DNA of 35,017 bases, taken from the IMG/VR virus record IMGVR_UViG_3300010005_000003, positions 1 to 35,017 of that record; one strand, 5' to 3'. This document shows, in pieces, positions 1-10,523 of this stretch. The first letter of the stretch is position 1, and each line of letters begins with the position of its first letter. The position numbers were made by a program, and so were the translations under genes. Origin of the DNA: a virus (Duplodnaviria; Caudoviricetes). The notes beneath the pieces are model-generated. The model was given only the letters and a program-made list of their open reading frames with translations. It did not search any database and had not been told where the DNA came from.

Positions 1-2466
1 CGCCTCGAAGAAGAGGCTCGCGGCAAGACAATTGCCCGCTTCCACAAGGAACACTTAGAGGGGACTTTAGGGGAGACCTTTAGTGAAACCTTTATGGGTT
101 CACACCTCCTGAAACAATATTTCATTCCCTACGAAAAGGGTATCTCAGAGTGGCTCTCTAAGGCCAACTCAGGAAGGGCTGGAGCCCGGAACCTGTCTGC
201 GAAGCTGCTGGATGGGATCGACACACCGACGATCACCTTCCTGATGCTCAAGGCGATCCTGAACAAGGTCTGCGTCTATTTCGAGAACAAGCCGTGCTCG
301 CTCACCAGCCTTTGTCTCTATGGCGCCAGCCTCATCCACGACGAGATGCGCCTCAGGGAGTTCGACGAGCTACACGCTAAGCTCTCCAAGCGCATCCACG
401 AGGACTTCAATCAGCGTGAGCTTCCCCGCTACAAGCGTGAGGAGTACATGCAAAGGGAGTTCGCCAAGCAGAACATGGACTGGGCTGTCTGGACGAAGTC
501 GGACATGCTCCACGTCGGCATGGCCCTCCTGGACATCTTCCGTGAAGTCACGGGTGACATCGAAGTGGCCACCACCGGGTCGGGACAGGCGAAGATGGAC
601 ATTGTCCGTCCGTCGCTGGGTCTCATCCAGGCCGTCGAGATGACCGCAGATCACTGCGAGGCTCTCTTTACGACCTACTTCCCCATGGTGATCCCTCCGG
701 TTCCCTGGTCGCTCGATACGCTCGACCGGGGCGGTTACCTGACGCACAACGTGTCTCCCTATCCGCTCGTCAAGAACAGCAAGAAGGCGTACCGCGAAGT
801 GCTCCGCAAGGCTGTCCGCGATGGGACCGTGAGCCGGGTGCTGGCTGGTGTCAACGCCCTCCAGGAGACCGCCTGGAAGGTCAACGAGCGTGTCCTCGAC
901 GTCATGGAGTGGGTCTATGAGCGCAACATCAAGTGCGGCAAGCTGCCCCTGGCTGAAGACATAGAGCCCGATCCACCGCCGATGTCCCTTGAGGGCCTCG
1001 ACCGGGATGACCCGAGGGTGAAGGAGTACCGGGCGCATTGCTTCAAGATCCACGAACACAACCGCCGCATCGTCGGCAAGCGCGTGATGGCCTCCAGGTC
1101 ATTCTCCATAGCTCGCAAGATGGCCAAGTATGGCGCCATCTACTTTCCTCACGATCTCGACAGCCGAGGCAGGGCATACCCCAGGACCTCGGCCCTTCAC
1201 CCGCAAGGACCGGACTATGTCAAAGGCCTCCTTCAGTTTGCGAAAGGCAAACGTCTCGGCACAGAAGGCCGCTACTGGCTGGGTGTGCACGGAGCTAATT
1301 GTTATGGGGAAGACAAGCTACCTCTGGACGAACGCTTCGCATGGGCTGTCAATCATCTCGACCTCGCCCGACGTGTGGCCCAAGACCCCCGGAAAAATGC
1401 TTCCGAATGGACGAAAGCAGATAACCCTGCTCAATTCCTTGCTTGGTGCTACGATTGGGCCGAAGCCCACGCGACCGACCGCCCCGAGGATCATATAAGC
1501 CACCTCCATGTGGACCTCGACGCAACCTGCTCGGGCCTCCAGCACTTCTCGGCAATGCTCCGCGATGCGGTGGGCGGCTTCCACGTCAACATGACGCCCA
1601 ACAAGGTGCGCCAGGACGTCTACGGCGCCGTCGCCACGGAAGCCCTGAAACTCATCGAGATGGACGCCAAGAGCCGCTCGGACACCGCCCAGGTGGCCCA
1701 GGCGTGGCAAAGCTTCGGGGTCTCCAGGAGCATCGCCAAGCGGCCCGTCATGGTGAAGCCCTACGCTGGCACCCGTCAGTCCTGCACCACCTACGTGGCC
1801 GACAGCGTCAACGAGATGCTCGACGACGGACACCCGATGCCCTGGCCCAAGAAGGAGCTTTGGGACTTCAAGGTGTACGGCTCGGGCAAGATCTGGGAGG
1901 CGATCCCCAAGGTCGTGGTGGCCGCTGATGGCGCCATGAAGTGGCTCTCGACGATCTCCCGGCTGGTCGGCAAGTCTCAGCCCGAGATCAAGCGGATCGA
2001 GTGGACAACCCCGCTCGGCTTCCCGGTCCACCAGTACAAGTTCGACGTGGTCTCCCGCAGGGTCAAGACCAAATTCGACGGGGCGATCATCAAGCCCCGC
2101 CTGACGGAGGATGGCGACAACCTGGATGCCCGAAAGATGGCCTCCTCGGTGGCCCCTTCGTTCGTCCACAGCCTCGACGCATGTCACCTCCAGGCCACCA
2201 TAGCGGCGGCTCGGGAAGAGGGCATGACGGATTTCGCGGCTGTTCATGACAGCTTCGGGGTTCACGCCTGTGACATCCCCAAGTTCACCCGGATCATCCG
2301 CGAGCAATTCGTGAAGATGTATTCCGAGCACGATGTGCTGAGCGAGTTCCTTGAGAGCGCTCTGCCGCTGATCGCTGAGGAGTTCCGAAAGGATATTCCC
2401 CCGGTGCCAGCAAAGGGTTCCCTGGATCTCCAGGGCATCCTTGAGAATGAGTTTTTCTTTAGCTAA
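1..2466 (+). CDS. gp1: T7-like single-subunit DNA-directed RNA polymerase (5' end truncated by the window edge)
   Basis: Frame is open from base 1. Motifs DSRGRAYP, DATCSGLQH (motif A), KRPVMVKPY (motif B), VHDSF (motif C), and C-terminal FFFS (T7 has FAFA). Confidence 0.98.
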   Translation, partial: RLEEEARGKTIARFHKEHLEGTLGETFSETFMGSHLLKQYFIPYEKGISEWLSKANSGRAGARNLSAKLLDGIDTPTITFLMLKAILNKVCVYFENKPCSLTSLCLYGASLIHDEMRLREFDELHAKLSKRIHEDFNQRELPRYKREEYMQREFAKQNMDWAVWTKSDMLHVGMALLDIFREVTGDIEVATTGSGQAKMDIVRPSLGLIQAVEMTADHCEALFTTYFPMVIPPVPWSLDTLDRGGYLTHNVSPYPLVKNSKKAYREVLRKAVRDGTVSRVLAGVNALQETAWKVNERVLDVMEWVYERNIKCGKLPLAEDIEPDPPPMSLEGLDRDDPRVKEYRAHCFKIHEHNRRIVGKRVMASRSFSIARKMAKYGAIYFPHDLDSRGRAYPRTSALHPQGPDYVKGLLQFAKGKRLGTEGRYWLGVHGANCYGEDKLPLDERFAWAVNHLDLARRVAQDPRKNASEWTKADNPAQFLAWCYDWAEAHATDRPEDHISHLHVDLDATCSGLQHFSAMLRDAVGGFHVNMTPNKVRQDVYGAVATEALKLIEMDAKSRSDTAQVAQAWQSFGVSRSIAKRPVMVKPYAGTRQSCTTYVADSVNEMLDDGHPMPWPKKELWDFKVYGSGKIWEAIPKVVVAADGAMKWLSTISRLVGKSQPEIKRIEWTTPLGFPVHQYKFDVVSRRVKTKFDGAIIKPRLTEDGDNLDARKMASSVAPSFVHSLDACHLQATIAAAREEGMTDFAAVHDSFGVHACDIPKFTRIIREQFVKMYSEHDVLSEFLESALPLIAEEFRKDIPPVPAKGSLDLQGILENEFFFS

Positions 2467-3120: not shown

Positions 3121-3141
3121 CCTTCGATAACGAAGAGGAAA
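3121..3141 (+). repeat. 21-bp direct repeat, copy 2: palindrome plus RBS
   Basis: Exact match to 2470-2490. Confidence 0.9.
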
Positions 3142-5679: not shown

Positions 5680-7363
5680 CACCAACGAGAGGGCAATCCT
5701 GACGCATCAGCCCTGCCCATCCTGTGGGTCCACCGATGCGCTCTCTGTCTACCCCGACCACACCTATTGTTTCTCCTGCGAGACCCGTGGGGACGCCGAG
5801 GGCTTCGAAGCAGTCGGCACCGGCAGCAAGCTGTCCGAGGACTTCTACCGCCTGGAATACGCAGCGATCCCCGCGAGGAGCATCACTGAGGAAACCGCCC
5901 GGTTCTGGTCCTACGGCTTCGCTCAGTACCACGGCAAGAAGACCCACTGCGCCCAGTACCTCGACGACAACCGAACGGTGGTCGCCCAGAAGTTCCGGAC
6001 CCGCGACAAGCAGTTCCCCTGGATCAACCGCAGGGCCTTCACGGGGCTCTATGGGCAGTGGCTGTGGCGCCGTGGCGGCAAGCAAGTGGTGATCACCGAG
6101 GGTGAAATCGACGCCATGTCGGTCTCCCAGGTGCAGAACCACAAGTGGCCCGTCGTGTCCGTCTGCGATGGCGGCGGCAAGAACGCCGTGAACAACATCA
6201 AGGAAGCCTACGAGTGGCTCTCGACGTTCGACAAGATCATCCTGTTCTTCGACAACGACGAGAAGGGCAGGGCGTCTGTCGATCTCCTCAAGAAGCTCCT
6301 GCCGGTCGGCAAGGTCTACATCGCCTTCACCCCTGAGGGCTACAAGGACCCCAACGACCTCCTGATGGCTGGCAAAGGCAAGGCCATCATCGACGCGATC
6401 TGGGAAGCGAAGCAGTGGGTTCCCGCTGGCATCGTGACGGGCTCGAAGATCATCGAGCGGCTCAAGAACCGGCCCCCGGTGACGAGCTATCCGTACCCCG
6501 ACATCATGCCCGAGTTGAACCGCAAGGTGCTCGGGATACGCCTGGGGGAACTCGATACGTGGACGTCAGGCACCGGCATGGGCAAGACGACCATCATCAA
6601 GGCCCTCCAGAACCACTTCTTCCACACCACTGATTTCAATCAGGCCCTCATCCACCTTGAGGAGCCCCTGGAGGATACCGGCGATGACCTCATTGCCTAT
6701 GAAGTTGGCCGACGTTTCCAGGTGGAGCTTCCCAGCGATGGGGAGACCGCCTTCCGAGATACCCCCGAGTACCTCGCCGCCGCTGAAGCGCTCTTTCTGG
6801 CAACAGATGCAGAGGGTCACAGTCGTCTCCAGCTTTATGACGCATTTGGCTCGCTTGAAGACGACAGCCTTTACCAGACCATCCGGTATCTCGCGATGGC
6901 CTGCGGGGTCAAAGTCTTCTGGCTCGACCACCTTTCGATCCTGGTCTCAGACGGTAAGGAGGACGATGAACGAAAGCGCATCGACGCCATCATGCACAAC
7001 CTCAAGAGCCTGACCGTGGAACTCAACATCTACATCGGGCTCATCTCTCACCTCAGGAAACCCCCAGGAAATGGCAAGAGCTTTGAGCAGGGCGCTGTCC
7101 CTAGCTTGGACGATCTGCGTGGCTCTGGTGGCATCAAGCAGCTTAGCAATGGCGTCTATGCCATCTCGCGAAATCAGCAAGATCCCAACCCAGTTGCTCG
7201 CAATACTTCCACCATCACGGTCCTCAAGTGCCGCAAAACGGGCCGCACTGGAACCGCCGATCATCTGACATTCGAAGACGACACTGGCCGGATTGTCGCC
7301 GGGGTTGACCCCAACTCCTTCGACGACTTCGACGACGAGGCACCCTCCGATGTCGGATACTGA
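5672..7363 (+). CDS. gp4: DNA primase/helicase (T7 gp4-like)
   Basis: Zn finger CPSC..CFSC, TOPRIM EGEIDA / FDND, Walker A SGTGMGKTT, LDHL, SHLRK, LRGSG. Confidence 0.98.
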   Translation: MDDTNERAILTHQPCPSCGSTDALSVYPDHTYCFSCETRGDAEGFEAVGTGSKLSEDFYRLEYAAIPARSITEETARFWSYGFAQYHGKKTHCAQYLDDNRTVVAQKFRTRDKQFPWINRRAFTGLYGQWLWRRGGKQVVITEGEIDAMSVSQVQNHKWPVVSVCDGGGKNAVNNIKEAYEWLSTFDKIILFFDNDEKGRASVDLLKKLLPVGKVYIAFTPEGYKDPNDLLMAGKGKAIIDAIWEAKQWVPAGIVTGSKIIERLKNRPPVTSYPYPDIMPELNRKVLGIRLGELDTWTSGTGMGKTTIIKALQNHFFHTTDFNQALIHLEEPLEDTGDDLIAYEVGRRFQVELPSDGETAFRDTPEYLAAAEALFLATDAEGHSRLQLYDAFGSLEDDSLYQTIRYLAMACGVKVFWLDHLSILVSDGKEDDERKRIDAIMHNLKSLTVELNIYIGLISHLRKPPGNGKSFEQGAVPSLDDLRGSGGIKQLSNGVYAISRNQQDPNPVARNTSTITVLKCRKTGRTGTADHLTFEDDTGRIVAGVDPNSFDDFDDEAPSDVGY

Positions 7364-8531: not shown

Positions 8532-10523
8532 TTGAAAACTCTACTATTTGACATCGAGACCAATGGGTTGCTCGACACGATGACCCGTGTGCACTCGCTT
8601 GTCATCAAGGACATCGACACCGGGGAAGTCCTCTCGTTCACCGACGAGACCTACCCCGGCAAGTTCTACAAGCCCGTCGCTGACGGCGTCCGCATGCTGA
8701 TGGAAGCTGAATGCATCATCGGCCACAACGTCATCAAGTTCGACCTTCCGGCGCTCCAGAAGCTCTACCCCTGGTTCCAGTTCGACCGCAAGCGCGTGTT
8801 CGATACCCTGGTTGCCGCCCGGGTGATCTGGCCGCAGGTCGTCGATCTGGACATGATGAAGATCAGGGCAGGGAAGACCACCCTGACGCCCAAGCTCGCT
8901 GGCAGCCACTCCCTGGAGGCGTGGGGTCACCGCGTGGGCAACTGGAAGGGCGACTTCTCGGCGGTCAAGAAGGCCGAGGGTGAAGCGCTCGGTGTCTCCA
9001 AGGAAGAGATCGACAACTGGATTTGGGCCGAGTGGTCCAAAGATATGCAGGATTACTGCGAGCAAGACGTGGAGGTCACGCACCTCCTATTCAATCGGAT
9101 TGTCTCGAAGAACTATTCCACCCAGTGCCTGACGCTGGAGCATGAAGTTGCGTTCATCATGGCCGAGGTGGAGCGTAACGGCTTCAACTTCGACATGAAA
9201 GCCGCCGAGGACCTGTATCGGCAACTCGCTGGCATCCGTGAGGAGATGGCCCAGGAACTGCGGGACATCTACCCGCCCTGGGAGGTCAAGAACGGCCCAC
9301 CCTTCGTCCCCAAGAGGGACAACGCGAGGCTCGGCTACAAGGCCGGTGTCCCCGTCCAGAAATGGAAAACCCTCGTCTTCAACCCGAACTCCCGGGACCA
9401 CATCGCGGATCGTCTGATGACGGTCAACGGGTGGAAACCCACGGAGTTCACCGCCACGGGGAAACCCAAGGTGGACGAAGACGTGCTCTCAGCGCTGCCC
9501 TATCCCCAGGCGCAGCGTATCGCAGAATACATGACCATCCAGAAGCGGCTTGGTCAGATTGCCGAAGGTGACAATGGCTGGATTGGAAGTGTTCAACGAG
9601 ACGGTCGAATACATGGTTCGATCAACCCGAATGGAGCGGTCACAGGTCGTGCAACGCATAGCCGACCAAATGTCGCACAGGTTCCGAAAGTTGGGACCGT
9701 ATATGGCGCCGAATGCCGAGCCCTCTTTTGTGCGACTTCCGGGAAGACCCTCCTTCTTGGTTGTGACGTCTCAGGCCTTGAACTCCGAATGCTCGGTCAT
9801 TTCATGGCTGAATTTGACGGAGGCGCTTACGCCGACGAAGTCGTTAACGGTGACGTCCACACCCGCAACCAGCTAGCCGCCGGGCTGCCCACCCGAGACA
9901 ACGCCAAGACCTTCATCTACGCCTTCCTCTACGGGGCTGGCGACGAGAAGATCGGCAGCATCATCGGCAAGGGCAAGAAGGAAGGCGCGGCGGTCAAGAA
10001 GAAGTTCTTCGCTGAGGTCCCCGCGCTGAAGGACCTGATCGACAAGATCCAACTGATCGTCGGCAGCTACCGGCGCATCAAGGGTGAACCCACGGGACCG
10101 CAGAAGGACCGCTGGCGCTACTACAAGAAGGTCAAGGACCGCTGGTGGCGCAAGGGTGACAAGGTGAGCCCCCTCACGGGTCTCGACGGTCGCCTCCTGC
10201 ACATCCGCTCGGAACACTCTGCGCTGAACACCTTGCTCCAGTCCGCTGGCGCCATCGTGTGCAAGCAGTGGATCGTCGAGTTCGACCGCCTTCTGACCGA
10301 GGCTGGTATCCGGCATCTCGTCCGTATCGTCGCCTGGGTCCATGACGAACTCCAAATGGAGGTCGATCTGTCTCTAATCGTCTTCGATAGCGAAGGCAAA
10401 GCAACATCCATCGTCGGTGACATCTGCATCGCAGCCATCGTCGAGGCCGGTCACAAGCTCGGGATCACCGTGCCGCTGTCTGGCGAATACAAAATCGGAA
10501 ACAACTGGAAGGAAACGCACTGA
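8532..10523 (+). CDS. gp5: Family A DNA polymerase with 3'-5' exonuclease (T7 gp5-like); likely TTG start at 8532
   Basis: FDIETNG, GHNVIKFD, YCEQDV, DVSGLELR, RDNAKTFIYAFLYGAG, VHDE. Confidence 0.98.
   Translation: MKTLLFDIETNGLLDTMTRVHSLVIKDIDTGEVLSFTDETYPGKFYKPVADGVRMLMEAECIIGHNVIKFDLPALQKLYPWFQFDRKRVFDTLVAARVIWPQVVDLDMMKIRAGKTTLTPKLAGSHSLEAWGHRVGNWKGDFSAVKKAEGEALGVSKEEIDNWIWAEWSKDMQDYCEQDVEVTHLLFNRIVSKNYSTQCLTLEHEVAFIMAEVERNGFNFDMKAAEDLYRQLAGIREEMAQELRDIYPPWEVKNGPPFVPKRDNARLGYKAGVPVQKWKTLVFNPNSRDHIADRLMTVNGWKPTEFTATGKPKVDEDVLSALPYPQAQRIAEYMTIQKRLGQIAEGDNGWIGSVQRDGRIHGSINPNGAVTGRATHSRPNVAQVPKVGTVYGAECRALFCATSGKTLLLGCDVSGLELRMLGHFMAEFDGGAYADEVVNGDVHTRNQLAAGLPTRDNAKTFIYAFLYGAGDEKIGSIIGKGKKEGAAVKKKFFAEVPALKDLIDKIQLIVGSYRRIKGEPTGPQKDRWRYYKKVKDRWWRKGDKVSPLTGLDGRLLHIRSEHSALNTLLQSAGAIVCKQWIVEFDRLLTEAGIRHLVRIVAWVHDELQMEVDLSLIVFDSEGKATSIVGDICIAAIVEAGHKLGITVPLSGEYKIGNNWKETH

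Follow-up and report, generated by a model that had tools for sequence, protein, structure and literature searches.

An RNA polymerase-overprinted candidate gene of T7-like phages and its free-standing copy in an unrelated phage

Introduction

We are strongly confident, from codon conservation among relatives, that the RNA polymerase (RNAP) gene of a T7-like phage encodes a second, selected gene in its +1 frame, and only slightly less confident that this gene was born within the RNAP gene and later freed from it. The window analysed here, the whole stretch of 35,017 nucleotides, is a linear, 81%-complete virus record that also carries genes for an ssDNA-binding protein, a primase-helicase, a DNA polymerase, and a terminase. 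Its RNAP gene matched Pfam RNA_pol (E 2e-100) as well as RPOL_N, and the region 1120-1560 was aligned to T7 RNAP 409-550 (E 7e-32). Cultured phages with more than 40% RNAP identity to the window were not found. Close RNAP relatives (51-69%) are located in metagenomic contigs and in prophage-like regions of Rhizobiales genome contigs, which come from a Rhizobiales isolate, Aminobacter, Maritalea, and Cohaesibacteraceae; the carrier strains include Aminobacter sp. J41 (L068) and Maritalea mediterranea P4.10X (L070). A further close relative, the contig of P0001, stands at 81% RNAP identity. Because relatives sit in bacterial genome contigs, with host genes directly upstream in L068, the phage group is likely temperate. 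As side observations, the RNAP of the Aminobacter prophage (L161/L068) is preceded, at a distance of about 1.7 kb, by two tRNA-Asn genes, and one 166-kb metagenome contig holds the same phage RNAP twice, 42.7 kb apart (L012 and L013), probably as a concatemeric assembly.

Results

Layout of the overlapping frame

The open reading frame (ORF) overlies RNAP residues corresponding to approximately T7 440-530 and stops just before the catalytic motif DLDATCSG (Table 1). A sequence-only reading had reported the AAGGA shortly before the ATG at 1217, the 93-aa frame ending with TAA at 1496-1498, and 19/40 RNAP codons ending in A/T from 1216 as opposed to 3/40 from 1561; all of these proved exact. The Shine-Dalgarno-like sequence and the ATG coincide with the conserved RNAP motif Q-G-P-D-Y-V. 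Among the nine RNAP genes bearing the ORF, hereafter carriers, AAGGA is found in six and AGGGA in two. Since AGGGA is also present in the ORF-less L055 and L069, the Shine-Dalgarno-like sequence is weak evidence on its own. Both elements can come from the RNAP sequence by chance, and in L001 and L085 the ATG is present although the ORF is not. Ribosomes would initiate internally on the RNAP mRNA, at AAGGA-7 nt-ATG, to translate the candidate gene. The part of the RNAP gene that precedes the ORF gave no promoter-like site in a consensus scan, which is insensitive to alphaproteobacterial promoters.

Three features of the initial reading did not extend to the relatives. The alternative ATG at 1130 that it had offered is not conserved, and five of the nine carriers have a stop six codons before the ATG equivalent to 1217, so this start was rejected. 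The 93-aa length describes the open frame in the window, but the conserved part covers only about 73 aa: the carriers have ORFs of 73, 73, 73, 78, 91, 93, 97, 97, and 97 codons, and because the stop position is not conserved, we consider approximately 73 aa as the real unit. Likewise, the TAA does arise from a rare ATA codon in the window (Ile ATA followed by Ser AGC in the RNAP frame, ATA being 4 of 36 Ile codons), whereas this explanation does not reach beyond it, since the stop is lineage-specific. We also observed that L161 has ACG at the ORF start and no GGA, has lost the Shine-Dalgarno-like sequence, and has in-frame ATGs at -22 and -29. The A/T excess in L161/L068 reaches about 45-60 codons further upstream, and the start may have moved there to the upstream ATG at -22/-29.

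Table 1. Coordinates of the RNAP gene and of the elements of the overlapping frame in the window.
Feature	Position	Strand	Remarks
T7-like single-subunit RNAP gene	1..2466	+	5' end cut by contig edge; ancestral frame
Overprinted ORF, 93 aa, +1 relative to RNAP	1217..1498	+	
Conserved core of about 73 codons, predicted strand-helix-four strands domain	1217..1435	+	Alignment, pLDDT, A/T-ending codons
Variable tail, likely unstructured	1436..1498	+	pLDDT 53-60; missing from 3/9 carriers (stop at codon 73 in L056, L058, L161)
Shine-Dalgarno-like AAGGA, 7 nt 5' of ATG	1205..1209	+	From RNAP codons CAA GGA
Upstream in-frame ATG	1130..1132	+	Rejected as general start

Codon bias and retention of the frame

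An open +1 frame by itself is ordinary in this GC-rich window and means little. The 19 long genes contain 35 open +1 frames of at least 70 codons, and synonymous resampling of the window RNAP gave an open 73-codon +1 frame in 32% of cases. A strong A/T excess was observed in only two of the 35 frames, namely the RNAP ORF and one in the DNA polymerase gene. RNAP codons ending in A/T account for 43/95 over the ORF versus 136/726 elsewhere (Fisher p 5e-8), distributed as 36/73 in the core and 7/22 in the tail.

Aligning the RNAP genes of related phages, the check that the sequence-only reading had proposed, bore out its candidate: the ORF is retained, rare codons are fixed, and both a natural loss and a free-standing homologue exist. 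The set comprised 116 RNAP genes after removal of near-duplicates (>95% identical in the region), frames shorter than 300 aa, and loci missing the start; 13 of them, including the window, are at least 50% identical (near) and 103 are distant. Expected counts come from random redraws of synonymous codons according to the codon usage of the gene in question. Among the near RNAPs, the +1 frame is open for at least 73 codons in 9/13 (4.2 expected), and an ATG together with the open frame is found in 8/13 (1.1 expected), which does not represent eight independent events, as the carriers are related. The 103 distant RNAPs have seven open frames (7.0 expected), nine ATGs, and no case of both. The RNAP region itself matches T7 and mitochondrial RNAPs, so that the ancestral frame is the more widespread one.

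The carriers share 56-85% RNAP identity (63-85% for the eight GC-rich lineages). In these eight, the number of A/T-ending codons over the ORF exceeded all 2000 synonymous resamples; the ninth carrier, L070, with a GC content of 50%, was uninformative (p 0.23), and the ORF-less L055 gave p 0.55. We then considered the positions where all eight GC-rich carriers share the RNAP residue and counted those with an A/T third base common to at least seven. Such fixed codons were found at 9/29 positions in the core versus 0/272 outside (p 2e-10), and their A/T bases encode the start Met, Lys3, Phe6, Leu8, Leu27, and Val29 of the ORF, among others. Between L030 and L054, synonymous codons differ at 6/48 positions inside the overlap as opposed to 193/494 outside. 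The constrained stretch runs from the ATG to near the shortest stop.

Natural loss of the ORF

In an RNAP tree from which the overlap was excluded, the carriers cluster with one nested loss, L055, placed among them with a bootstrap of 100, while the base of the tree is weak (36-77; 36-71 at the basal nodes of L070 and L001). The GC content of L055 is as in the carriers, but it has an ACG start, two stops, and no A/T patch. Among the sites fixed in the carriers, about 13 are silent in RNAP and alter the ORF, and L055 differs at 12 of these; in the opposite class, with about 21 sites, it differs at 2. Because the RNAP-silent sites changed and the opposite class was mostly kept, L055 displays the pattern of a released second frame.

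Predicted protein and family searches

The nine ORF proteins share 44-60% identity with the sequence from the window. AlphaFold predicts for the window ORF a strand, a helix, and four strands over residues 6-71, with a mean pLDDT of 80 (about 90 over residues 11-70), which suggests a compact beta-sheet domain of about 71 residues. The best 19-residue hydropathy is 0.2-1.0 in 9/10 members and 1.5 in one, so most members appear to lack a transmembrane stretch, which, or else a lipoprotein signal, would be expected of an embedded lysis gene or spanin. The pI ranges from 4.4 to 10.2 and the net charge varies. When the ORF core was modelled in complex with its RNAP, a second program was uncertain, in at least one run, about the fold of the small protein itself.

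Neither Pfam, PHROGs, the PADLOC defence models, nor PDB sequences contained a family match, and annotated phages and plasmids gave no sequence match. The ESM Atlas returned 0.87 at best, below the usable level, and Foldseek with the predicted fold found nothing at E<=0.001. In a structure comparison, the best Z of 5.0 was tied with many entries, including 2qzi_A (rmsd 3.2 over 70) and the KhtT N-domain 7agv_A (rmsd 4.5 over 58); the lack of a clear fold match is not a demonstration of a new fold. A word-indexed protein search returned nothing with the ORF sequence alone and a single match, P0122, with the ORF alignment. P0122 was also the sole full-length match (E 1e-21) in a profile search of 1.84 billion proteins, where the other nine of ten hits were multi-stretch matches in repetitive proteins.

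A free-standing copy in an unrelated phage

P0122 is encoded in the 8.8-kb contig L168, between a DUF6456 gene and genes for HNH, small and large terminase, portal, and major head proteins. This phage, unrelated to the T7-like carriers, has what appears to be an HK97-like head module, and the 8.8 kb sequenced contain no T7-like genes and no RNAP gene. The free copy is found in this one contig: besides G003, 400 family-level and 401 order-level scored genomes contained no further copies, and neither did 16 DUF6456-like loci (L178-L193). It forms a 364-bp block directly after the DUF6456 stop that is missing from the sister contigs L176 and L177; the flanks of L176 are 96.9% (left) and 92.5% (right) identical to those of L168. 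Similarity to RNAP is limited to approximately 610-1020 of L168, essentially the ORF, and the insert has the same boundaries as the ORF taken together with its start region. The copy is co-oriented with the DUF6456 gene, and neither a promoter nor a terminator of its own was found by the consensus scan, which misses many alphaproteobacterial promoters. We also noted that the small inserts in the slot between the DUF6456 and HNH/terminase genes (L168 648-2100) differ among L168, L176, and L177, and that a putative late promoter with TTGACG is common to the three contigs.

The -1 frame of the insert, aligned with a profile of 107 ORF-less RNAPs, scored 21 bits (E 1e-8), compared with 1.9 bits for the best of 300 shuffles. 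By itself this frame matched neither Pfam RNA_pol nor T7 RNAP, and it has one stop and has lost 8/19 RNAP-invariant residues. From the profile score it is recognisable as decayed RNAP. The ORF frame, in contrast to it, remained intact at a nucleotide divergence of about 30-40%, with a stop near that of the window. Of the ORF invariants, the free copy keeps 13/17. The homology runs into the tail, RNAP-derived sequence outside the conserved core, which establishes that the overlap came before the free copy. At carrier-fixed sites, changes in the free copy fell on 8 of about 21 that are ORF-silent and RNAP-breaking, on 2 of about 13 that are RNAP-silent, and on 6/50 that alter both; the first class differs from the last (p 0.02) and not significantly from the second (p 0.25). 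NG86 dN/dS estimates were about 0.4-0.7 in the ORF frame and 0.5-0.8 in the RNAP frame. The predicted fold has the same order of elements as the window ORF, albeit with a weaker mean pLDDT of 59.5. Selection on the free copy for the ORF frame is moderately supported by these comparisons.

Discussion

We propose that an RNAP-overprinted, selected gene makes a small soluble beta-sheet protein, expressed early in lytic growth, that acts on a host defence or regulatory target, a reading that we favour with some reserve as a whole. A piece of about 360 bp of a carrier-type RNAP gene would have been captured behind a late-activator-like gene of a second phage, where selection would have been retained for the new frame only. 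The free copy would be co-transcribed with this late-activator-like DUF6456 gene, just before the putative late promoter; according to PMC9638019, DUF6456 is the annotation of GafA homologues. Both gene locations point to expression in lytic growth, before morphogenesis. The target is probably host-encoded, because T7-like genes are absent from that region of the second phage and the protein is dispensable. An action on the host appears most likely since the protein would be of use to two phages that are unrelated but infect related hosts, can be dispensed with in the sisters of both, and is small and soluble. On these grounds a host-directed role in the lytic phase is somewhat favoured over other roles, and counter-defence is our single best guess, a tentative one, at its specific nature.

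The product could instead be expressed in the lysogen as a moron that works against other phages, through superinfection exclusion or abortive defence. The relatives in Rhizobiales contigs with their likely temperate lifestyle would suit this, as would the position of the free copy next to the late promoter, in a slot whose inserts differ in the three contigs. We nevertheless consider it unlikely, because lysogens would be expected to keep an RNAP gene silent, neither setting has a promoter-like site upstream (in a scan insensitive to alphaproteobacterial promoters), PADLOC gave no match, and the product is not a membrane protein. Regulation of the phage's own RNAP or of its lysis-lysogeny switch is a slightly less probable role. 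T7 lysozyme, which regulates T7 RNAP, provides a model for it, and PB1-F2 is reported to affect PB1 activity (PMC3494269). An ORF on the same mRNA as RNAP would be coupled to it in stoichiometry, and it seems confined to a likely temperate clade. These points are countered by the capture and maintenance of the gene in a phage that lacks T7-like genes as far as it has been sequenced, and by L055, which lost the ORF without other obvious change in RNAP.

The overlapping gene might be real and the free copy merely drifting, as non-functional captured RNAP DNA. The single contig, a p value of only 0.02, and the similar dN/dS in both frames would be compatible with drift. We regard it as improbable, given that the insert limits match the ORF and its start region, that the predicted fold is retained, and that after such divergence the ORF frame is intact whereas the RNAP frame has acquired a stop and lost invariant residues. 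Still less probable is that the codon constraint reflects an RNA structure or a DNA element with the open frame as a by-product. In principle, any fixed synonymous sites would fit such an element, and 9/9 sequences can form a short hairpin at columns 95-119 of the alignment. However, its covariation term is only -0.45, with a compensatory change in 2/32 pairs, and Rfam gave no hit, which led us to reject RNA structure as the cause. Also against either kind of element, the constraint is bounded by the ATG and lies within reach of the shortest stop, the fixed changes yield hydrophobic residues of predicted strands, and the free copy changed mainly at ORF-silent sites. Import of the A/T patch by recombination from a lower-GC phage, with a chance ORF, is hardly credible despite the mosaicism common in phages and the existence of lower-GC relatives (L001, L070): it is largely refuted by retention of the same patch, not ameliorated, in eight GC-rich lineages, by the reversion of L055, and by the fixation of specific codons, and third-position identity to L001 is not raised (0.30-0.36 in the patch versus 0.13-0.67 elsewhere).

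A selected gene born in RNAP has partial parallels. In T7, the overlapping genes 4.1, 4.2, 18.7, 19.2, and 19.3 are nested frames in essential genes, and we know of none within gene 1, which encodes RNAP. Our literature search, with most subscription papers outside its scope, found neither an ORF in a T7-like RNAP gene nor an escape from overlap in a phage. PB1-F2, the sgl genes, and nested spanins do not share sequence with the ORF. Influenza A PB1-F2 in PB1 likewise is a de novo frame over a viral RNA polymerase gene (273 nt, 282 nt here), described as young with dN/dS at or above 1 in PMC3494269. Unlike PB1-F2, the phage ORF is held across RNAPs of 56-85% identity, is predicted to fold, and has a free-standing copy. 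The sgl genes in rep of ssRNA phages (PMC7693330) are similarly small, unannotated, polymerase-embedded, and de novo, but they encode lysis proteins of RNA phages, whereas our ORF is located within an early gene of a dsDNA phage, which would hardly require it for lysis, and most members have no apparent membrane stretch. The Rz/Rz1 spanins are also +1 nested, missed by gene callers, and known in overlapped and separated families; as functional partners they stay together, and the authors of PMC6139136 favour separated genes as primordial. In the case presented here, by contrast, the nested gene is unrelated to the RNAP frame, which is demonstrably the ancestral one, and it reached another phage unaccompanied.

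Taken together, the evolutionary record of this overprinted gene appears unusually complete, and its birth region is, by alignment, the conserved catalytic-domain part of RNAP. That the gene was born, folded into a domain that has no known relatives, lost once, and passed on to an unrelated phage, where it became a host-directed (counter-defence) accessory gene standing alone, has, as a full life history, slightly less than an even chance in our estimation. For loss of an overlap, PMC3494269 cites a Thermoplasma case of Rogozin and co-workers (2002). Overprinting is a known origin of orphan genes, of which phages have many small ones, but shedding of the parent, the 'victory' of a de novo gene through loss of the overlap, was previously put forward as speculation (PMC3494269). 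Compared with that proposal, the ancestral frame here can still be read under the free gene, and the probable route is transfer between phages. Since overlapped, lost, and freed states are all present, the evolution of the protein while a second frame constrains it can be compared with its evolution after that constraint is gone, and the freed copy allows asking whether function is unchanged after escape. A folded domain, as predicted, would be encodable across a conserved part of a T7-type RNAP. Gene callers overlook such overprinted genes. If our reading is true, alternate frames of polymerases would be a nursery for orphan phage accessory genes, and the same genome may be repeating the process in its DNA polymerase gene.

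That candidate, a second +1 ORF at 9550-9876 (+) with a likely ATG at 9574 (100-108 aa), has 0.52 A/T-ending codons versus 0.17, the strongest excess of the 35 open +1 frames. Searches gave no family or phage match. It would be lineage-specific, because in relatives at 55-68% identity the frame is interrupted by stops and the patch is missing. The primase-helicase gene has open +1 frames at 6657-7013 and 7071-7268 (+) that coincide with weaker A/T patches (0.32 versus 0.17); the former frame is closed in ten relatives, and the downstream patch is partly shared. Another A/T-rich patch, at 30-180 near the 5' end of the RNAP gene, is common to several relatives, has stops in its +1 frame, and includes a conserved short inverted-repeat-like stretch at about 52-85, possibly an operator or promoter. 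Finally, a 15-nt motif occurs after the RNAP gene in exact copies at 2470-2484 and 3121-3135 and in weaker form at 10381 and 25010. With five matches versus 0.07 expected, these sites are likely phage RNAP promoters.
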